DNA of 60,619 nucleotides, counting the filler. It is 3 parts of 3 records of this genome, joined end to end, with 100 filler letters (N's around TTAATTAATTAA, not from the genome) between each part and the next. Parts side by side here need not be neighbours in the genome. Positions count along the whole stretch, not along the records: positions 1 to 28,512 come from SRR31156797_2146; 2 more parts are not named here. One strand, written 5' to 3'. The notes under the pieces are model-generated. The model saw only the letters and a list, made by a program, of their open reading frames with translations. It did no database searches and was not told where the DNA came from. The stretch's first letter is position 1. Each line of letters begins with the position of its first letter. A program made the position numbers and the translations under genes. Positions 12,201-21,655 of this stretch are shown one piece after another.

Positions 12201-14557
12201 ATGCTGAACGTACTAAAAAAAATAGCCGGGTCTGATTCATTCTTTCTGCTCCTCACCGGGTTGGCGGTCTCCATTCTGGTCGCTTCCCTCTATATTTTTC
12301 AACCACCCATCCTGCAATTCGTGGATTATAAAATCTATGACCAATTCATGCGTTCCAGCCCTGTAGGCACTAAAACAAACATCCCGGTAATAGTTGATAT
12401 TGATGATGAAAGCCTTGCCGAACTGGGACAATGGCCGTGGCCCCGCTACCGCATGGCTTTGCTGCTGGCTAAAATACATCAGGCCGGGGCCCTTTCCACC
12501 GGACTTGATATTCTCATCGGGGAACCGGACGCACTTCTCCGGCCACCATTAAAAAAAGCCTGCGCGAAGAATTGGGCGTAACAGTTAACTTCAAAGGGTT
12601 GCCTCAAGGACTGATGGACAACGATCTGGTCTTGGCTGATGTCCTTAAAAGCGGCCGTTTTGTGCTCGGTTTCTATTTTGATTTTCTAGAAGGACAGACT
12701 CCATCTGTGAATGACCTGCCCTGCTTTGCCAAGCCATTGCCCGTTGCCCAGATCAGAGCCAAGGGCGCACCGCCGCTCAAGGATTTGACCCTGAGTGCAC
12801 TGGATGCAATCTGTCCTCTCCCCGTATTGGCAAAAGCCTCCCCTTTGTGCGGTTTTTATAACTCCATTACTGATTATGACGGAGTAGTCCGCCGGGTCCC
12901 GCTGATTATCAACATGGACGGCAAGCAATATCCAAGCCTTGCCCTTGCTACGCTCATGAAGGCACTGGGCCGCAAGAACATCATTGCCAAAACCAGCCCC
13001 ATCGGCATCGAATCAATCCGCGTCGGCAAGACCACCATCCCCGTGGATGCCAAAGGGCAGATGCTGGTCCGCTACCGGGGCGGCATGGAAGAATTCCCCT
13101 ACTACAGTGCCAAGGATATCCTCAGCGGTAAGGTCGGGGAAAAAGAACTGAAAGGCAAAATAGTATTCATGGGTACCTCTGCCGCGGGACTTCGCGATTT
13201 AAGAGTTACCCCCTTTGCATCGGACTATCCCGGAGTGGAAGTCCACGCCACCATAGTAGACAACATCCTAACCCGAGATTTCCTTCTCAAACCAGACTGG
13301 GTACCCGGCCTTGAGTTGCTGCTAGTAATGACTGCGGGCATAATTTCCATGATCCTGCTGACGTGGTCACGTTCCATGTGGATGATCCTGCCCATCGCGG
13401 GAATGGGTACAGGAATTGTTTATGGATCACTTTATATTTTCCAAAGTTACAACGCCTATCTTACGCCTATGTATGCTCTGATTGCACTGGGCACAAACTT
13501 CACCCTGCTGACTCTGATCAAATTCTGGCGCGAGGAAGGTCAGAAAAAATTCCTGCAGGCCACTTTCTCCTCTTATCTGGCCCCGGAGCTGATCGACGAA
13601 ATGTTCTCCAACCGAGAAATGCCCGAGCTGGGCGGTGAAGCAAGGCAGGTTACCGCCTACTTTACCGACATCCAGAGTTTCTCCACCTTCTCGGAAAAAC
13701 TGACCGCGCCGCAGTTGGTTGATCTACTCAACGAATATCTCTCGGTCATGACCGATATTCTTATCGAAGAGAAAGGAACCCTCGATAAGTACGAAGGTGA
13801 TGCGATTATCGCCTTTTTCGGCGCACCCATGGATGTGCCGGACCACGCCCTGCGCGCCTGCCGGGTGGCGGTAAAAATGCAACGGGCCGGAATCGAATTA
13901 CGCGAGAAATGGGCCAAAGAAAGACAGCTGCCCGATGAACCGGACCGCAACACCAAAAATTTCCCTGAAGAACAATGGGCCAAGGGCGAAAAATGGCCCA
14001 GAGTTGTCCACAACATGCGTACCAGAATCGGGGTCAACTCCGGTGAAATAGTGGTCGGAAACATGGGATCATCCATGCGCATGAACTACACCATGATGGG
14101 TGACGCGGTTAACCTCGCCGCCCGTCTGGAGGAAGGCGCCAAGCAGTTCGGTATCTTTACTGCAGTCTCTCATTTTACGCTTGATCTAGAAGTGGAAGTT
14201 GATGGCGAACCCCATAAACTTCTTGATCTCGTGGAAGCACGGCTTATCGATAATATTCAGGTGGTCGGTAAAAATGAACCAGTGCGCATCTACGAACTGG
14301 TAGCCATGAAGGGCGGCCTCACCGAGAGTGAAGAAATCCTCTTCGACCTCTTCAACAAAGCCCGCGAAGAATACGTCGCCCAGAATTGGGACAAAGCCAT
14401 TGAACTATACAAAGAAGCCAACAAATACGAACTCTACGACGATACTAAGTTCACGCCATCGGATGTGTTCATCAAGCGCGCCGAGGAACACAAGCTCAAT
14501 CCGCCTGTCCCCGAAGGAGAAATTTGGGATGGGGTTTATCGGATGACTAAGAAGTAG
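12201..14557 (+). pseudogene. CHASE2-domain class III adenylate cyclase, split by a 1-nt frameshift near 12530
   Basis: ORF1 has IVDIDDESLAELGQWPWPR; ORF2 has FTDIQSFS, LDKYEGDAI, YTMMGDAVNLAARLE; adding one C at GAC|GC restores EPDRTSP and a single ORF. Confidence 0.85.
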
Positions 14558-17330
14558 GGTAAATTAGCCAACTTGGTCTAATCTTCCCTATTTCTAAAAG
14601 ATAATTATTCACCACAGAATTATCAGATTTATTCCCTAAGAGGCACAACTCATTATAAAAATAGCGACACTGTTCCCAATCTCTTTTCTTATCTGCTAAC
14701 AACATTAAGTTCCAGGCAGAGTTAGCTTGAATTGTGAGAATCTCAGACTTTTTACATGTAGGTGAAATTAACGATGTTAAATAGGTATATAATGGTTTAG
14801 CTTTGCAAAAATCTTCTAATAAGCAATAACCATAAACCAGATTACCGACTGCTCCAACTTTCATTAGTTCTATTTCAGCATTATCTGAGAGACTAGCACT
14901 TAAATTGATTAAATCAGTATAAAACATTTCAGCCTTCGACAATTCACCTACTTTAGCCCTTCCTATCAACATCGTAGCTAAGGCCTGAACCAGCATCAAG
15001 GATATTTCTGGCTCACTAAAATCATCTACTTGTACCATCCTCAAATCATCATAAATCATCTCAGATTTACTTAAGTTCCCTGCTTCTTCATATTTACTAA
15101 TTAAAAAAGCTGACAATTTAACGAATTGCATTATAATTTCCGAGTCACAAGAGTCAAAATCAAGCAACTTCATCAAACAGCCATAAAAAGCCTCTAACTT
15201 AGACAAATCAACTGAATCGCCATAAACATCACAAAGCATCTCCAAAGCAAGATACAAAGTATACGTTATAGGTAAACTGTCTGGGAAAGTGACCGTTTGA
15301 GAAACTAAGTCCTCGTAAAAATGCTCAGCACGATTTAAATTTCCAATTTTCACATATCCATCAATTAGAGAAAAGGCCGACGCAACTTGTGATATAACGA
15401 TCTCATACCTATTTGAATGAATGTTGAGCGTCGACATTAGATCCTCATACAAAGCCTCCGCTTTAGAAAAATTATTTATACGAGAGTACCCCCGGATAAG
15501 TCTAAAAGTTGCGTCAGCCAACTCTGCAACGAGCTCGTTGGAAGTAGATGCCTTTTCTACAAACTTTTCTAAGTTTCCGTAAAAACGTTCCCCCTTAGGA
15601 ATATCACCTTCCTCGACACTCTGATCAATAAAGCGAACGATAACAGTAGCCCAGAAATGCAAAGAAAACGAATCCGCAAAGCGAGGAGGCTGAATCAATT
15701 CAGAGAACATAGAATGATCTGAATAGTCCAAGCTTAATTTCGCAAGAAAAAAAGAGGTTTCAATAGGATTGTTACTCCATGCTATATTTATAACATCTTT
15801 CCTGAATTTATTTTCCGCAAACGTAACCTCATCATCCATAAGAAAATTCAAAACAAAAAACTCGCCCACAAGGTCTGGTTCCCATGGAGGAACAAAATGC
15901 ACCACCGCAGACTTTTTCTCCACTTTACAATTCAATGCCTTGAAACGTTCTTTATGTCGTATCAAATCAGACAATGAAGTTATACAATCTGGCAAAACAT
16001 AATCATCTTTTGTAGAAAGCCCACCGACAATAGTTGCCAAAGCTAATAAAGCCTTATCACTCTCAGTTACTCCATTAGAGGACCAGAACATGTTCTCTTC
16101 CCGTTCAATAACATCCAATAGAAGTAATTCACGGCTATATTCCCTACCCTCTCCTCCCTTTGCAAGTGCGGCAGCAAAATATGCTGCAAACAAAGGACGC
16201 ATTAATGGATCAATTGTTTTCAGCTTCTCTAAATGTTCGCTCCAAGAATCTGGGATATCTCTATTTTCTACTTCATAAAAAAAATTAAAAATACCTTTTA
16301 CTAACTCAGGTTCTGATTGTCTTAAAAGATATGCTGCCTTGGAATAACTTACTCGGCTTAAATCTGCATTTTTGAATAATGTTTTGAGCTTATAGTCAGC
16401 ATTCTCTCTATCTAAAATTAATACGCGCACATTGTAATTAAAAAATTCCGCCTGATCACTCAGGTGTTCAAGAATTTCTTTCAGTCGTCCTTCATCCTTT
16501 GTGGCATAGTCAATAACAATCAGCGTAGGTTGACAAGGTATCCAATTCTCAAAATCAAATTTAATATTACGCAATACCCCCGCACGATATACACCACCAT
16601 GGCGACAACAAAATTCGAGCGCAAGTCTACTCTTTCCAACGCCGCCAGGACCTAAAATTGCCTGCCAACAAAATCTTTTGTCACTATACAAAAATTCATC
16701 AAGAAAACTTAACTCCTTATCCCTACCCACGAACGGTATATACTGAGAGCGATAAATAAACCTTGAACGTTCATCATCGCTTTCATAAACGCTTTTAAAT
16801 TTTGGTTGAGGCTTAAGCAAACCTATAATGCACTCTAAATCCCCCTTCATTTCATCAAGCATGTCCATCTGATATAGAGCTGCCTGCAAATCTATGGACA
16901 ATACCTTCCGGTGTTCCATATCCCCGGCAGAACGATCTACTTTCCGCTCCAAACGAACTATTAAAGCTTCTTCCACCTGAGTCTGCTGACTAGTTTGCGT
17001 TCTTAAATTTTCAAGCTTCTCAATAAAATTCCTAGCCCAATCAAAACGTGTAACCCTACTCAGAAGTTTTTGCTTCATCACATCTGACATCACTTTTCCA
17101 GCATACTGACCACAGGAAACAATCAAAGGTGTGATTAACTTCAAACCAAGCATAACCTGCCAGCGTGGCAAGCCATGTTCATCAACTAACCAATCGGCAA
17201 CATGCTTAGACATATCGACATCAGACAACCATTTGATTAAGTTGTTAGATTCGGCAAGATCCTTTAAAGATTCTTCAACATTAAATGAAGATGATGCGGA
17301 GCTATTACACATAGTCATTTTATAACACAC
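14547..17330 (-). CDS. STAND-like P-loop NTPase with C-terminal 44-aa helical (TPR-like) repeats
   Basis: FVGRDKEL, Walker A GPGGVGKS, Walker B LIVIDYA, VRVLILDR; eight repeats of GxLxKAExFYxDL type; AT-rich; start codon uncertain (17330/17318/17312). Confidence 0.8.
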   Translation of the reverse strand: MCYKMTMCNSSASSSFNVEESLKDLAESNNLIKWLSDVDMSKHVADWLVDEHGLPRWQVMLGLKLITPLIVSCGQYAGKVMSDVMKQKLLSRVTRFDWARNFIEKLENLRTQTSQQTQVEEALIVRLERKVDRSAGDMEHRKVLSIDLQAALYQMDMLDEMKGDLECIIGLLKPQPKFKSVYESDDERSRFIYRSQYIPFVGRDKELSFLDEFLYSDKRFCWQAILGPGGVGKSRLALEFCCRHGGVYRAGVLRNIKFDFENWIPCQPTLIVIDYATKDEGRLKEILEHLSDQAEFFNYNVRVLILDRENADYKLKTLFKNADLSRVSYSKAAYLLRQSEPELVKGIFNFFYEVENRDIPDSWSEHLEKLKTIDPLMRPLFAAYFAAALAKGGEGREYSRELLLLDVIEREENMFWSSNGVTESDKALLALATIVGGLSTKDDYVLPDCITSLSDLIRHKERFKALNCKVEKKSAVVHFVPPWEPDLVGEFFVLNFLMDDEVTFAENKFRKDVINIAWSNNPIETSFFLAKLSLDYSDHSMFSELIQPPRFADSFSLHFWATVIVRFIDQSVEEGDIPKGERFYGNLEKFVEKASTSNELVAELADATFRLIRGYSRINNFSKAEALYEDLMSTLNIHSNRYEIVISQVASAFSLIDGYVKIGNLNRAEHFYEDLVSQTVTFPDSLPITYTLYLALEMLCDVYGDSVDLSKLEAFYGCLMKLLDFDSCDSEIIMQFVKLSAFLISKYEEAGNLSKSEMIYDDLRMVQVDDFSEPEISLMLVQALATMLIGRAKVGELSKAEMFYTDLINLSASLSDNAEIELMKVGAVGNLVYGYCLLEDFCKAKPLYTYLTSLISPTCKKSEILTIQANSAWNLMLLADKKRDWEQCRYFYNELCLLGNKSDNSVVNNYLLEIGKIRPSWLIYPTS

Positions 17331-17344
17331 TCACCACAACACAC

Positions 17345-17383
17345 CAAACAAAAATCCCCCTGCCGCACCGCGACAGGGGGATT
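17345..17383 (-). terminator. Intrinsic terminator after the cysteine synthase fusion gene
   Basis: AATCCCCCTG / CAGGGGGATT stem with a T-tract on the minus strand. Confidence 0.8.
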
Positions 17384-17407
17384 CTTAATTCTATATCCAA
17401 ATAATTC

Positions 17408-19702
17408 CTACCTAACCCGGAAAACCCGCGCTCCCTCGGAACTGTCTTCTACGTTAAAACCAAGTTCAAGCAGCTTATCGCGCAGACCGTCGGCTGTGGC
17501 GAAGTCTTTATTTGCGCGGGCCAGCTCGCGTTGTTCGAGCAACTCTTTGGCCTCTTCAGGCAAAGAAACGAACGGTACGGGCATGGCCTCATGGTCGAGG
17601 ATGCCTAGGATGTCGTCGACTTCCAACAATTGATCAAGGCAGAACTTTGCTTCCTTGGCGGAAAGCTTACCGCTTCCCAACTGGGAATTGATGGTCTTGG
17701 TAAAACTAAACAGGATGGGCCAGAAGCGGTGCAGCATGAGGTTGTCGTTCAGGGCCTGAGATAGACCGGACTTGAGGGTGAATACCTCTTGGTCGATATC
17801 CTCGGAAAGCTGACCGGAATCCCCGGCGTGTATGCTCAGACCTGCGGCAAGGTCCTGCAATTTCTGCTGGTTCTTGACCCACATGGAGATGGACTGTTCG
17901 CTGCACACCAACGGTTTTTTATAGGATGATGAAAGCATCCACATACGCACAGCTATGGGCTGACCCGACTGCTCAAGAAGTTCATCCACACAGGGCAATA
18001 CCGGACCGCCGGGAAGTACCGGCTGAGCGACCATCCATGCCTGCGGGGAAACTCCGGCCCCGGCCCAGATAGCGCGCAGGTTTTCCAGATGCGGAAAGCG
18101 GTGGATTTCCCCGGCCAGCATAAGACTCACTCCGGGCAATCCTTCAAGAGCTGTGACCGCCTGCTGCATAAACCAGCTGGGGCGCACATTGCCCCACTCA
18201 GTCTCGATGATGTCACCGAGTTTGAGGTCCTGCAATGTTGCGCGCTTGAGCAGGGTGAAATCGCGCGGATTTTCCTTAACATAATCATCCATGTCTACGG
18301 TCTTGCCTAGGCTGACCTTATCGATATCCATGTTGGACATCTGGCCGTAGCCCTTGTCGCGGGAGATATCAAAATACACGGACCGCAACTTCTCATAAGC
18401 CAGACCGTGGGCCAGCAAGGCACGGCAAAGCTCCACAGTACGGTCCACGGATTCCGAAGCACGTTCAAAACGCATGGATTTGCGTACACCAAGCAGGTAA
18501 GCAGCCTTGCGCACGGCAGTTGCGATTTCAGTAGAAAAAGTTTCCCGATCAACACCACGCTCACGGGAAGCGGCAAGGGTCTGGTCCTCAAGGTCGGCAA
18601 GCCCCACCAGCGCGGAAACCTTGGCTCCCTCGCGCTCCAGATGACGGGCAAGAACATCCAGCAGTACTATACGCCTGAACACTTCGGGATCATAGGGATT
18701 GTCAAAAGACGGCCCCATGGTGAAAAGACCGGTTTCAGCTTCCGAAATGGAGAGAACCCGGTCCTCGCCGCTGCTCTGATCAAAAATTTTCGGTCCTTTC
18801 AGAATCTGCGGACGAAACAGTGGTGTGGACAAATAGCGCTCCCCGCCATCGGGGAAAATGGTCACCACCAGCCCGTCTTCAAGATCGGAAGCGATGGCGG
18901 CAGCCCCGGCCATGGCAGCCCCGGAACTCATCCCCACGAACACGCCCTCTTCCTTGGCAAGACGACGACAGGATTCAAAGGCATCGTTGTCCTGTACCCG
19001 GATGATACGATCCAGCTTCTGCTTATCGTAGATTCCGGGAGGATAGGATTCCTGCATGTTTTTCAGACCCTGAATCTTATGCCCCGGTTCGGGTTCCACG
19101 GCGATCATCTGGATATCCTTATTCAGCTCCTTGAGCCGCTTGGTGATGCCCATGACTGTTCCGGTGGTACCGAGGCAGGCCACCACGTGAGTCACCTTAC
19201 CTTCGGTCTGGTCCCAGATTTCCTGTCCGGTTCCTTCATAATGAGCCTCAATGGAGGCTTCATTATTGTACTGATCCATAAGCAGGTATTTTTCCGGCTC
19301 CTCGCGGTAAAAACGATAAGCCTGTTCAATGGCTCCATCCGTTGCAAGATGTCCGGGAGTAAGCATTATCTCTGCCCCGTAGGCACGCATGATCATCTTG
19401 CGTTCCTCGGAAGCGGTCTCCGGCATGATCAGCATCAGCTTGTAACCACGTACCGCACAAGCCATAGCCAGCCCGATTCCGGTATTCCCGGAAGTGGCTT
19501 CAATGATTATTTTATCCGGGGTCAGTTCCCCGCTTTTCTCAGCCTTACGGATCATGGCCCCGGCAGCACGGTCCTTGATGGACCCTCCGGGGTTCATGGC
19601 TTCCAGCTTAGCCAGAATCTTGACATTTTTATTGGGATTGAGTCCCCTCATTTCAACAAGGGGGGTTCCACCGACCAGCTCAAGAATATTACGAGCAAAC
19701 AT
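17408..19702 (-). CDS. Cysteine synthase (CysK/CysM-type) fused to a degenerate cysteinyl-tRNA synthetase-like domain
   Basis: KLEAMNPGGSIKDR, EATSGNTGIG, GTTGT, PDGGERYLS; the C-terminal half has KENPRDFTLLK, TEWGNVRPSW, FPHLENL, RANKDFATADGLRDKL. Confidence 0.88.
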   Translation of the reverse strand: MFARNILELVGGTPLVEMRGLNPNKNVKILAKLEAMNPGGSIKDRAAGAMIRKAEKSGELTPDKIIIEATSGNTGIGLAMACAVRGYKLMLIMPETASEERKMIMRAYGAEIMLTPGHLATDGAIEQAYRFYREEPEKYLLMDQYNNEASIEAHYEGTGQEIWDQTEGKVTHVVACLGTTGTVMGITKRLKELNKDIQMIAVEPEPGHKIQGLKNMQESYPPGIYDKQKLDRIIRVQDNDAFESCRRLAKEEGVFVGMSSGAAMAGAAAIASDLEDGLVVTIFPDGGERYLSTPLFRPQILKGPKIFDQSSGEDRVLSISEAETGLFTMGPSFDNPYDPEVFRRIVLLDVLARHLEREGAKVSALVGLADLEDQTLAASRERGVDRETFSTEIATAVRKAAYLLGVRKSMRFERASESVDRTVELCRALLAHGLAYEKLRSVYFDISRDKGYGQMSNMDIDKVSLGKTVDMDDYVKENPRDFTLLKRATLQDLKLGDIIETEWGNVRPSWFMQQAVTALEGLPGVSLMLAGEIHRFPHLENLRAIWAGAGVSPQAWMVAQPVLPGGPVLPCVDELLEQSGQPIAVRMWMLSSSYKKPLVCSEQSISMWVKNQQKLQDLAAGLSIHAGDSGQLSEDIDQEVFTLKSGLSQALNDNLMLHRFWPILFSFTKTINSQLGSGKLSAKEAKFCLDQLLEVDDILGILDHEAMPVPFVSLPEEAKELLEQRELARANKDFATADGLRDKLLELGFNVEDSSEGARVFRVR

Positions 19703-19768
19703 TTTATCTAATCCTTTCAACTAATTATCTTTAAGAAAACGAATTTCAGGCCGCGCCCTTTTTATTTC

Positions 19769-19784
19769 TGGCAATCATTTTGCA
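19769..19784 (+). promoter_or_regulatory. Sigma54 -24/-12 promoter TGGCAATCATTTTGCA
   Basis: GG at 19770-71 and GC at 19782-83 with exact consensus spacing, upstream of the maf-like gene. Confidence 0.7.
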
Positions 19785-19879
19785 AACAAGGGGCAGAGGA
19801 TCATCAGTGTTTGAAATCCGGGGCAAGGAATGAACCCGGTAAAGTACAGCTAATAAACAGTCTGCCAAGGACGGAACAA

Positions 19880-21655
19880 ATGTCAGCCTATCCTTTTCTT
19901 AAAGACAACATCGAAGCTCTTGCAACATACAACCCGCCCTTTTATTCCTGGCTGAGCAGTCAGGATATTGACGAAGAGAAACTGAAAGAATCTCTCTTCA
20001 AGAATAAGTGGGACATTCTCGACTGGAAAATGGAAAACGGCAGCGGCATGTTTGAATCCGTTACGCCCAACATGATCTACAAAAGCTGGAAGGCTGAAGA
20101 AAAGCCCGAAACAAGTGCCACCTTCATTGTAGGCTGCAACGTGGGCTACGGTCTCAATCAGGTACTGATGAGCACTCCTGACACCCACAAGGTAATTGTC
20201 AGCGAACCGAATCCGGAAATGCTGCTCGCCTGTCTGGGACAGACCGATTACCGTCCATTCATGAAAGCAGGCAAACTCCATTTTTGCCCAGTCGATGAAA
20301 ACAGCCTGATGAGTATCATTAAAGAACTCGACCTTCAATTCGTATACGGCAAAATTTATTTGCGGCTGGATATGCCCAGCCAGCAACTGGGTCCGGAATA
20401 CGCACGCTGGTCTTCTACCATCCACAATAAGCTGGAATCCTTCACCGTGGAAATGACCACACTGCGCCTTAAGCAGGACGTCATGGTCGGCAATGAACTG
20501 GACAACTTTTCACGCATCCTTGAGGACGGCAGCATTAGCCCGCTCAAGGGAGCAGGACACGGCATAGGTGCGGTCATTCTCGGTGCTGGTCCCTCTCTGG
20601 CCCAGTTCGGTCCTGAACTGGCAAAGAATCCCGGACAGGCAATATTCACCACCTCATTACAGGGTCTCCCCGCTGTGCAGAAAACCGGAATCAAACCTCA
20701 CTTCTGTATCGGTATTGACTACAACGCCTCCATGGGCAGGGTCTATGACCAGCTGGACCATGAATGGGCCAAAGATATCCCGCTTATCTACTCCACCAAG
20801 CTGGATCACGAAGTACTTGCCGCCTACCCCGGACCGACGATTCCCATGTGGACCGTGGGTGGACTTGGCACCTTTGCCCTGAACAACCACGAAGAAGTTT
20901 TCGATGCCGGTAGTAACGTCAGTATCACCCTGGCAAGATTTCTCGACTGGTGCGGCTTCAGCCACATCTTGATGGTCGGACAGGATTTCGCATGGAAAGG
21001 CGAAGCATCCCACGCACCCGGTCACCAGAATGCCCAGGCTGTTAAATACAACACCTACAACCCGGCCATGCTGGTGGAACTGGAAAACGCCGACGGCGAA
21101 AAACTGACCTCCACTATCCAGTACATAACTTCCAAGCGTGAGATGGAAGACGACATCAAAAAACTGCGCGCCCCGTTCTATAACCTTTACGGCGGCTGTG
21201 CAGTAATTGAAGGCACCCGTAATGTGGATATGAATGAGGTAAACATGGAAGGTCTGCTCTCGGCAGTTCCGGGTAGCATGGACCATTTCAAAACAGCCAT
21301 GAACATGACCGCCACCCCGCGCGAAATGCCGGTATTCGAACCGCGCAGCCCAAAGTGGACCTCATCCCTGAACCACGTCACCAAGCGACTGGAAAAACTT
21401 TTCCGCAAGCATGGCAAAAATCAGGAAGAAATCCACAAAGCGCTCCACGAAGTATATTTCTTTATCAGGCAGGACCTTCTTTACTTGCCCTACCTGTATA
21501 ACGAAATCCTCGATATGGCAGGACTGGCAAGGGCAAAATCACACTACGTGCCCAAGGATCTGCCTCACTACAAGAGAATCATCAAAAAAATCCTGACCAA
21601 AGTCCGCCATATGGACCGGTCCATGAACGTGGCTGGCAACCGCAAAGCAGCCTGA
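19880..21655 (+). CDS. Motility-associated factor (Maf, MptE-like domain) flagellin glycosyltransferase family protein
   Basis: VILGAGPSL, GIKPHFCIGID, GSNVS, ILMVGQDFA motifs; N-terminal methyltransferase-like Rossmann segment. Confidence 0.8.
   Translation: MSAYPFLKDNIEALATYNPPFYSWLSSQDIDEEKLKESLFKNKWDILDWKMENGSGMFESVTPNMIYKSWKAEEKPETSATFIVGCNVGYGLNQVLMSTPDTHKVIVSEPNPEMLLACLGQTDYRPFMKAGKLHFCPVDENSLMSIIKELDLQFVYGKIYLRLDMPSQQLGPEYARWSSTIHNKLESFTVEMTTLRLKQDVMVGNELDNFSRILEDGSISPLKGAGHGIGAVILGAGPSLAQFGPELAKNPGQAIFTTSLQGLPAVQKTGIKPHFCIGIDYNASMGRVYDQLDHEWAKDIPLIYSTKLDHEVLAAYPGPTIPMWTVGGLGTFALNNHEEVFDAGSNVSITLARFLDWCGFSHILMVGQDFAWKGEASHAPGHQNAQAVKYNTYNPAMLVELENADGEKLTSTIQYITSKREMEDDIKKLRAPFYNLYGGCAVIEGTRNVDMNEVNMEGLLSAVPGSMDHFKTAMNMTATPREMPVFEPRSPKWTSSLNHVTKRLEKLFRKHGKNQEEIHKALHEVYFFIRQDLLYLPYLYNEILDMAGLARAKSHYVPKDLPHYKRIIKKILTKVRHMDRSMNVAGNRKAA

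Follow-up and report, generated by a model that had tools for sequence, protein, structure and literature searches.

Why should a bacterium hold on to a cysteinyl-tRNA synthetase (CysRS) that has lost its catalytic motifs, and why in the same polypeptide as an enzyme that makes cysteine? The question is raised by a gene on the minus strand of the window, that is, the whole stretch of DNA analysed here (60,619 nucleotides, three parts from three records joined by filler, the first of which, SRR31156797_2146, supplies positions 1 to 28,512). The original prediction, made from the letters of the window, described the product as an intact pyridoxal 5′-phosphate (PLP) cysteine synthase followed by a CysRS-shaped, catalytically dead region that may bind tRNA-Cys and in this way regulate or channel cysteine synthesis. 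The architecture it gave was borne out by Pfam, NCBIfam and structure matches, and it is with considerable confidence that the C-terminal half is now taken for a pseudo-CysRS which descends from an active fusion, no longer aminoacylates and is maintained by selection.

The two halves of the fusion protein

In the list of open reading frames (ORFs) of the window, the fusion gene occupies 17408..19720 on the minus strand. Translation probably starts at the ATG at 19702, which has an AAGGA 9 nt upstream and is the start in 10/10 close orthologues, and the resulting protein of 764 aa is identical in length to all ten of them, none of which shows a stop or an indel. Three Pfam domains are detected along the protein: PALP (PF00291) at 7-285 (E 1e-74), the family of CysRS catalytic domains tRNA-synt_1e at 342-545 (E 8.5e-25, covering profile positions 28-228 of 301 only) and CysS_C at 714-755 (E 4e-8). 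An AlphaFold2 model of the whole fusion reaches a mean predicted local distance difference test (pLDDT) of 89.7 and a predicted TM-score (pTM) of 0.64, with a pLDDT of ~61 in the linker between the two halves (Table 1).

Judged by family signatures and predicted fold, the first 298 residues are an intact cysteine synthase of the CysM/CysK type. The domain scores 373.1 bits with the NCBIfam model TIGR01136 (cysKM), above the cut-off of 344.15, and 369.8 bits with the cysM equivalog, just under its cut-off of 394.2. Searches of the Protein Data Bank (PDB) with phmmer returned the CysM structures 2jc3, 2v03 and 2bhs (E ~1e-78) at 43-44% identity, and the AlphaFold2 model of the domain superposes on 2bhs, 2v03 and 2jc3 with TMt values of 0.94-0.96 and a root-mean-square deviation (rmsd) of 1.5-1.8, as expected for a fold-type II PLP enzyme. 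Residues K43, T70-S71-G72-N73-T74, Q144, G178/T179/G181/T182 and S259 are invariant in 80/80 aligned fusions, an alignment whose members are 36-91% identical to the window protein over the full length. Following CysK and CysM, we take K43 to be the Schiff-base lysine, TSGNTG the asparagine loop, G-T-x-G-T the phosphate loop and S259 the residue at the pyridine nitrogen. The fusion shares with CysM (Salmonella 2JC3; E. coli 2BHS and 2V03) and CysK the fold, the PLP lysine and the asparagine and phosphate loops, and differs from them by the addition of a C-terminal pseudo-CysRS of 460 aa.

This second half retains the shape of a CysRS from one end to the other. Its last 450 aa align end to end with CysRS structures in phmmer searches of the PDB (8qhp, E 4.8e-26; 3tqo, 1.4e-25; 1li5/1u0b, E 1.7e-23 over chain residues 22-456). 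Moreover, the AlphaFold2 model of residues 303-764 alone (pLDDT 89.0, pTM 0.87) finds as its best Foldseek match 1u0b_B, the CysRS of the E. coli CysRS-tRNACys complex (E 2.1e-25, TM 0.72), followed by other CysRS (TMt 0.80-0.84), by the cysteine:GlcN-Ins ligase MshC (TMt 0.75-0.78) and then by MetRS. The top matches are all CysRS, with E values from 2e-25 to 1e-19. As in canonical CysS (E. coli; 1LI5, 1U0B), we find N-terminal strands, a Rossmann fold split by the connective polypeptide (CP), a stem-contact (SC) fold, a helical bundle and a C-terminal alpha/beta domain, and R427, W432 (as F), D436 and R439 are kept. In contrast with canonical CysS, the fusion lacks HIGH, KMSKS and KIIK, has one of the four Zn ligands and sits behind a cysteine synthase. 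The family model reflects this divergence: TIGR00435 (cysS) gives 143.8 bits to the fusion against a cut-off of 340, splits the match into 86 + 60 bits in genome searches, and gives 124-163 bits to the relatives of the fusion in the same order.

A detailed view of the alignment with 1li5 (phmmer), from which the E. coli numbering is taken, shows what became of the active site. In the window protein C28 is replaced by M, H37IGH40 by DPEV, T68 by A and K73IIK76 by QTLA; W205 and H234 are kept, and C209, H235 and E238 are replaced by Q, L and L, respectively. The motifs quoted in the original prediction were all found as written, namely MGPSFDNPYDPEV, VRPSWFMQQ and FPHLENL, the absence of KMSKS, and the helix motif RANKDFATADGLRDKL..G..VED at residues 729-753. 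Its claim of catalytic death holds well beyond this single sequence, since the ATP motifs and three of the four Zn ligands are gone in 121/121 members of the clade of Desulfovibrionales-type fusions. In that census, C28, H37, H40, C209 and E238 are each kept in 0/121, the KMSKS motif is present in 0/121, the column of its first K being a gap in 116/121, and both W205 and H234 are found in 121/121. Neither the HIGH/KMSKS pair nor the Zn site of CysRS (C28, C209, H234, E238) is present, H234 being the sole ligand kept. As far as these motifs tell, the C-terminal region is a catalytically degenerate CysRS, and we infer that it has no residual aminoacylation activity.

Could the region nevertheless aminoacylate through an unconventional active site? 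The search for a separate intact cysS, a check named in the original prediction, speaks against it. Genome-level tests were made in relatives, the closest being a Maridesulfovibrio genome (L001/G001) with 99% identity over the C-terminal 450 aa. A canonical separate cysS of 556-581 bits, with CGITAYDLCHIGH and KMSKS, is present in 5/5 closest genomes, all Maridesulfovibrio, and a cysS above the cut-off is found in 143/151 Desulfovibrionales genomes. A cysS above the cut-off is missing from six of the 112 fusion carriers described below. In G087 a fragment of the gene lies at a contig end, in G137 the copy is broken, and G081 has a CysRS of 444 aa without the anticodon domain. The other three, G060, G100 and G133, gave no other CysRS-family match and no SepRS in searches of these draft genomes, which is what favours a still active enzyme; the fusions of G060 and G100 are without KMSKS, and the ORF of G133 is mis-called, leaving its motif unread. 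All three are multi-contig drafts of unstated completeness, and the missing cysS probably reflects assembly gaps. With the loss of HIGH, KMSKS and Zn ligands across the clade and a score so far under the family cut-off, aminoacylation by this domain appears very improbable. Other CysRS-like ORFs of 426-454 aa were noticed in the same searches (G080:C14:16349-17581, G089:C103:3934-5199, G124:C203:8997-10112, G128:C71:1479-2684 and G081:C189:11200-12444); they match the cysS model from position 1 to ~400 only, have no anticodon-binding domain, score 286-309 bits, and may be relatives of the CysRS* of Desulfobacterales as it is described in the available text of PMC5389517.

The synthase half is likewise not the only one of its kind. 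Each of the five closest genomes has a stand-alone cysK (441-449 bits) directly adjoined by a cysE-like gene (155-156 bits, under the cut-off of 210), and because of this stand-alone cysK-cysE pair the fused synthase is regarded as a paralogue.

Other activities known from the CysRS superfamily were also considered for the degenerate half. The persulfide-synthase activity of CysRS depends on the lysines of KIIK and KMSKS; both motifs are gone here, and this activity is excluded. An MshC-like ligase is excluded as well, the nucleotide-binding and Zn motifs being absent and MshC structures (3C8Z; Foldseek ranks 13-18) ranking under all CysRS matches. MshC and CysRS*, a non-canonical CysRS paralogue from related bacteria, are the only CysRS paralogues named in the available portions of two works on paralogues of aminoacyl-tRNA synthetases (PMC9437257, PMC5388404). 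The fusion resembles MshC in its membership of the superfamily and CysRS* in being a non-canonical paralogue (PMC5389517, available text), whereas both of these are described in the consulted parts of PMC9437257 and PMC5389517 as active ATP-dependent ligases; CysRS* moreover lacks the anticodon-binding domain, the opposite of what the fusion retains (PMC5389517, same parts).

Table 1. Features of the fusion gene and its product, with positions in the window
Feature	Residues	Position	Strand	Basis
Fusion coding sequence, 764 aa + stop (17408-17410)	1-764	17408..19702	-	ORF list, translation
AAGGA, Shine-Dalgarno-like (presumed function)		19712..19716	-	Read from sequence
CysM/CysK-type PLP-dependent cysteine synthase domain (O-acetylserine sulfhydrylase fold)	1-298	18809..19702	-	Pfam, NCBIfam, PDB phmmer, AlphaFold2
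Lys43 in SIKDR, expected PLP Schiff-base lysine	43	19574..19576	-	Invariant in 80/80
Linker, short, low-confidence	299-302	18797..18808	-	pLDDT of block 291-300 averages 61
Complete, catalytically degenerate CysRS-like region (pseudo-CysRS)	303-764	17411..18796	-	phmmer, AlphaFold2, Foldseek, TIGR00435
MGPSFDNPYDPEV, remnant of CGxTVYD..HIGH (C28 Zn ligand to M; HIGH to DPEV)	329-341	18680..18718	-	Alignment, clade census
CP domain, most constrained part of the protein	433-520	18143..18406	-	dN/dS, invariants
VRPSWFMQQ, remnant of GRPGWHIEC (W205 kept; Zn ligand C209 to Q)	506-514	18161..18187	-	
FPHLENL, remnant of FPHHENE (H234 kept; H235 to L; Zn ligand E238 to L)	536-542	18077..18097	-	
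Deleted KMSKS loop site	~566-571	17990..18007	-	Gap opposite KMSKSLGNF of 8qhp, 3tqo, 1li5
C-terminal alpha/beta anticodon-binding domain	711-764	17411..17572	-	Pfam CysS_C E 4e-8
R..AR..KDF..AD..RD...G..VED (E. coli R423, R427, W432, D436, R439, D451)	725-753	17444..17530	-	

Selection, spread and descent of the dead domain

A region stripped of its catalytic motifs at the end of a long stem branch may be a remnant on its way to becoming a pseudogene, and the history of the domain was examined with this in mind. The C-terminal 450 aa were searched against a sample of 151 genomes from Desulfovibrionales, the order to which the closest genome belongs. A strong fusion match (E <= 5e-43) was obtained in at least 112 of the 151, a lower bound, given that two of the other genomes (G054 and G131) have fusion-like fragments at contig edges; the remaining ones comprise 38 with only canonical-CysRS-level matches, these two among them, and one with none. 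Among the matches listed, identity ranges from 99% down to 37%, no internal stop occurs, and the full-length ones lie in frames of ~730-900 aa. One longer frame, of 1344 aa in L071, has an N-terminal part of 572 aa without any Pfam domain and is probably an over-extended ORF.

Ratios of nonsynonymous to synonymous substitution (dN/dS) were calculated by the Nei-Gojobori method (NG86) between Maridesulfovibrio genome pairs, 12 of which had a computable dS. The CysRS-like part gave 0.016-0.067 (pairs with dS 0.18-0.9 included), the PLP part 0.008-0.038, and genuine cysS in the same genome pairs 0.027-0.046. Many of these pairs lie near dS 1, and the less diverged ones agree with them (0.028 at dS 0.18 and 0.039 at dS 0.37). 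Purifying selection acts on the CysRS-like part just as strongly as on canonical cysS, and the part is not decaying, which is the outcome that the original prediction needed from dN/dS on its C-terminal domain. In addition, 27 residues of this part are invariant in 80 sequences whose full-length identity goes down to 36%, and the listed matches of the 112 genomes are free of stops and frameshifts. Altogether, a decaying remnant is barely credible. The region is a homologue of an aminoacyl-tRNA synthetase without its motifs, held by purifying selection and fused to an enzyme for its cognate amino acid, and in these traits it agrees with regulatory pseudo-synthetases of the HisZ or GCN2 kind.

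Searched against 1.84 billion representative sequences, the whole protein returned only ~7 clusters of full-length fusions. One of them, P0128, from a metagenome-assembled genome (MAG) of Nanoarchaeota and named cysteine--tRNA ligase, still has C28, HIGN, GRPGWHLEC, FPHHQNE and KMSKS; P0126 is similar to it in its intact motifs, and P0125 is half-degenerate. A new search from P0128 uncovered a large family of fusions of 758-804 aa, hosted by DPANN archaea (Woesearchaeota, Nanoarchaeota/Nanobdellota), by Desulfobacterales and by MAGs labelled 'Deltaproteobacteria'. Among 122 fusions from outside Desulfovibrionales, C28 is kept in 121, C209 in 120, H234 in 122 and E238 in 75; 18 are fully canonical, with an intact Zn site, HxG[H/N] and KMSKS, and all 122 keep the anticodon residues. 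These DPANN and other Desulfobacterota proteins share with the window protein the architecture, a length of ~760-800 aa and the anticodon residues, and differ from it in keeping C28 and C209 and, in some, the full motifs, of which the Desulfovibrionales clade has none. The search for representatives also gave two-stretch matches that looked like reversed fusions and were rejected as PALP-PALP or PALP-PALP-SAT proteins unrelated to CysRS. Such PALP-PALP and PALP-PALP-serine acetyltransferase (SAT) proteins, the latter with SATase_N and hexapeptide repeats, are P0134, P0135, P0136, P0141, P0153, P0158, P0163, P0178, P0213 and P0267.

Fusions can also be followed within the phylum. In a Desulfobacterota sample, 36/101 genomes have a CysRS-family match in a frame of 735-850 aa, a count of fusions drawn from frame length and not from individual checks for PALP. 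The TIGR00435 scores of these matches fall continuously from 463 to ~140 bits, and nearly all of the genomes that carry them also have a canonical cysS at 520-600 bits. Two genomes, G179 and G219, have two fusion-length matches each, apparently paralogues, and a fusion-like frame at G171:C1:2737672-2739059 is broken by a TGA.

A maximum-likelihood tree (IQ-TREE quick search) was built from 95 CysRS domains, comprising 22 from the dead clade, 41 other fused ones and an outgroup of 32 canonical Desulfobacterota CysRS. All 63 fused domains form a single clade apart from canonical CysRS (SH-aLRT 100), with the DPANN forms that have intact motifs basal among them. The 22 dead sequences group together with a support of 100, at the end of a stem branch as long as 1.77 changes per site that emerges from within the bacterial fusions. 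Their sister, with a support of 94 (not starred), is a bacterial group that reads QVAT where HIGH is expected; given one long terminal branch and compositional heterogeneity, this exact placement is uncertain. On this phylogenetic reading the fusion arose once, and the dead domain stands last in a series that goes from intact in DPANN, through Zn-site-only in most other Desulfobacterota, to dead in Desulfovibrionales. The ancestor would have been a bifunctional cysteine synthase-CysRS; in bacteria provided with a housekeeping CysRS, the fused copy would have lost its ATP chemistry first and, in Desulfovibrionales, its Zn site later; the CP domain and the pocket would then have changed rapidly, in a burst whose outcome was frozen by selection.

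Annotation follows this series poorly. The statement in the original prediction that cysteine synthase-CysRS fusions are annotated in Desulfobacterota proved correct; in the databases the Desulfovibrionales clade is called 'cysteine synthase' and the wider family 'cysteine--tRNA ligase', a name that many of its members carry in the source. However, 104 of the 122 wider-family fusions examined (P0125, P0126, P0128 and P0280-P0398) are without a canonical HIGH-type motif and/or KMSKS, and aminoacylation by the ones that lack canonical ATP motifs appears doubtful. In consequence, many 'cysteine--tRNA ligase' entries stand without canonical ATP motifs.

What the dead domain may be kept for

If catalysis is gone and selection is not, the residues that remain should indicate the job. 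In 32 canonical CysRS from Desulfobacterota, 156 columns reach a conservation of >=90%; of these, the dead clade has kept 39, swapped 16 for another conserved residue, and left 101 variable or deleted. The kept columns are not randomly placed: they belong to the CP domain, to the pocket (G330, R343, D370, D373, F536-P537-H538, N541 and W510) and to the anticodon-binding domain (R725, A728, R729, D738, R741 and D753).

The last of these sets was the one pointed out by the original prediction, and its retention is confirmed here down to named E. coli contacts. AlphaFold2 models residues 711-764 as two helices and a beta-hairpin with pLDDT ~80-92. Across the clade (n=121), R423 is found in 121, R427 in 120 with one K, an aromatic residue at W432 in 121, D436 in 121, R439 in 120 with one K and D451 in 121; the W432 equivalent is F in the window protein, and both F and Y were counted as aromatic. 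According to the available text of a recent study (PMC13449415, 2026), positions 427, 432, 436 and 439 of E. coli CysRS are anticodon interaction sites chosen from 1U0B, and Arg427 bonds the O6 of G34. The residues that would bind a GCA anticodon (R427, W432, D436, R439) are, by this comparison, present in 120-121/121 of the dead clade, and the contact positions are kept in 243/243 fusions when R or K is allowed at two positions and any aromatic at W432.

The most conserved part of the protein is nevertheless the CP domain rather than the C-terminal helix motif highlighted earlier. Its dN/dS of 0-0.015 (residues 433-520) is the lowest of the whole protein, compared with 0.015-0.037 in the PLP domain. 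Of the 27 positions that never vary in the CysRS-like part, 18 fall within 433-510, and the CP domain carries the clade-specific invariants AYEKLRSVYFD, TVD..Y.K.NP.DFTLLKR and WGNVRPSW. Within it, loop 464-475 is conserved and at the same time the sole stretch with pLDDT <50, a prediction which suggests that this loop orders only when bound to something.

Docking of tRNA-Cys is the function proposed for the module, because it keeps the residues that read a GCA anticodon and because its hyper-conserved CP domain is the one placed next to the acceptor stem in CysRS. The scheme would be as follows. The N-terminal 298 residues would form cysteine from O-acetylserine, or from another activated serine related to it, in a PLP-dependent beta-replacement, and the C-terminal 462 residues would have been kept for a non-catalytic job after the loss of HIGH, the KMSKS loop and the Zn site. 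By docking tRNA-Cys, this module would link the fused synthase to the state or the location of that tRNA, its likeliest form being a sensor that matches cysteine synthesis to the demand for Cys-tRNA, in the manner of the HisRS-like domain of GCN2 or of HisZ. The whole chain, from a non-aminoacylating module that still binds tRNA-Cys to a synthase tied to tRNA-Cys status, stands for us evenly poised between right and wrong. One part of it, which is also a milder version of the chemistry on the tRNA considered below, is that the protein directly senses the charging of tRNA-Cys and gates the biosynthetic enzyme; taken alone, this is put forward tentatively, as somewhat less probable than not.

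The conserved CP surface may instead be read as a protein-protein interface, the whole domain serving as a structural or oligomerisation scaffold or as a recruitment surface, with the anticodon residues retained for folding. Its clade-specific invariants that are not in canonical CysRS (EKLRS, TVD, LLKR) do suggest a new interface. Yet folding explains poorly why anticodon-contact residues should be kept throughout the entire family of fusions, and a domain of 460 aa held at dN/dS ~0.04 across an order would be a costly scaffold, all of which makes this explanation improbable.

The pocket opens another alternative, a tRNA-free allosteric sensor of small molecules like HisZ, in which the remnant pocket would bind cysteine, O-acetylserine or a nucleotide. 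G330-P331, R343, D370, W510 (W205), P537-H538 (H234) and N541 are invariant in 80/80, and the wider family mostly keeps the Zn/cysteine site while its ATP motifs degrade (C28 in 121/122, C209 in 120/122), a retention that fits an ancestral role in sensing cysteine and for which HisZ gives a precedent (PMC9437257, available text). On the other hand, the thiolate-Zn binding by which CysRS recognises cysteine, as stated in the accessible part of PMC5424206, has lost three of its four ligands in 121/121 of the dead clade, and the fixed anticodon-contact residues, far from the pocket, are left without explanation. Such a sensor is regarded as unlikely, if the least unlikely of the alternatives.

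A more unusual proposal is that the pseudo-CysRS presents the 3′ end of tRNA-Cys or aminoacyl-tRNA-Cys to the fused PLP enzyme for chemistry on the tRNA itself, as SepCysS and SelA do. The arrangement invites it: a putative tRNA-docking module shares one polypeptide with a PLP enzyme of beta-replacement with sulfide, conservation extends to the anticodon residues as well as to the CP domain on the acceptor side, and sulfate reducers live amid abundant sulfide. However, SepRS was found in none of the 10 genomes searched, leaving no known route to put activated serine on tRNA-Cys; the search gave only cross-matches of 19-25 bits to frames of ~350-380 aa, which are probably PheRS alpha. The dead domain cannot itself load a tRNA, the two domains look flexibly linked in a predicted model without juxtaposed sites, and we know of no precedent for a fold-type II PLP enzyme that acts on an aminoacyl-tRNA. 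We therefore rate it below even the scaffold, as quite improbable.

Several observations weigh against tRNA-Cys docking and its coupling to the synthase. The foremost is the set of three draft genomes, G060, G100 and G133, in which the fusion was the one CysRS-family match. The evidence for tRNA-Cys binding is residue conservation, and a regulatory or channelling effect on the synthase would be a further step from it. The helical (DALR-type) domain is poorly conserved and goes undetected by Pfam. A CP1 motif of D. tiedjei CysRS, M164-A167, is linked in the available part of PMC5389517 to recognition of the first acceptor base pair, and the positions matching it vary in the clade (M455 0.49, S456 0.24, by a mapping made by eye); the conserved loop 464-475 adjoins them. 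The arrangement of the PLP and CysRS-like domains in the predicted model is uncertain and lends no support to tight allosteric coupling, and a complex prediction between the two domains scored 0.38, its control 0.37. Furthermore, no conserved functional partner was found in the gene neighbourhood of 12 loci, and an Rfam scan of 17000-20200 found no upstream regulatory RNA, its sole match being an L10 leader at chance level (E 0.77; 23 bits where the gathering score is 44). Net charge does not discriminate between the readings, with about the same overall values for CysRS-like segments and canonical CysRS (-3.7 vs -7.4).

For tRNA-Cys docking, GCN2 is the working analogy. Its HisRS-like domain is an inactive, synthetase-like binder of uncharged tRNA that acts as a switch for the enzyme domain fused to it; GCN2 is, however, a eukaryotic kinase that binds many tRNAs, whereas the enzyme joined to the pseudo-CysRS is biosynthetic and PLP-dependent, and tRNA-Cys would be the one tRNA recognised. 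To our knowledge, inactive synthetase paralogues turned regulatory are few, namely HisZ, the HisRS-like domain of GCN2 and SLIMP, with none for cysteine. HisZ, the regulatory subunit of ATP phosphoribosyltransferase, is similar to the fusion in being an inactive synthetase paralogue at work in the pathway of its own amino acid (PMC9437257, available text), and differs in being a separate subunit without anticodon binding that senses free histidine, the fusion being covalent, with its anticodon residues kept and its Zn site lost. A full-text literature search, with subscription journals outside its reach, did not bring up any account of a cysteine synthase fused to a CysRS, whether active or dead, and the available portions of PMC2922099 and of two papers on the encoding of cysteine (PMC8762117, PMC5424206) make no mention of it.

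Genomic surroundings and meaning of the fusion

The genes next to the fusion change with the lineage, and include a Maf/MptE-like gene, fumarate reductase, fumarase, phosphoglycerate mutase and an EamA transporter. In the window, a divergent gene at 19811-21655 (+) encodes 614 aa, and its orthologue is a 587-aa MptE-like/Maf-type protein. This neighbour is paired with the fusion gene in Maridesulfovibrio and in loci L072 and L073 and not in other lineages, and no functional link between the two is apparent. Directly downstream of the fusion gene, an ORF of 927 aa (14547-17330, -) has a GC content of 0.35-0.42, compared with 0.52-0.57 for the fusion gene, and weak matches to AAA_16/ATPase_2 P-loop and PPR-like repeat models, all under the Pfam cut-offs. 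A counterpart of 917 aa exists in L001 and none at that position in L006 or L009; the ORF looks like a strain-specific inserted STAND-type NTPase. The window has no tRNA genes.

The fusion would be, as its retained and lost residues suggest, a pseudo-synthetase that has been recruited to the metabolism of its cognate amino acid: a dead CysRS, spread across a bacterial order, fused to a cysteine-making enzyme and with its tRNA-reading residues intact. The living intermediates in DPANN archaea and other Desulfobacterota let one ask how a synthetase becomes a pseudo-enzyme and what is selected once catalysis is gone. Were tRNA chemistry to be its function, SepCysS and SelA would be joined by a third way of converting an amino acid on its tRNA, one that evolved independently in sulfide-rich anaerobes. 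Should it sense tRNA-Cys, sulfate reducers would have in this protein a bacterial, enzyme-level counterpart of GCN2 and the T-box for a toxic amino acid derived from sulfide.

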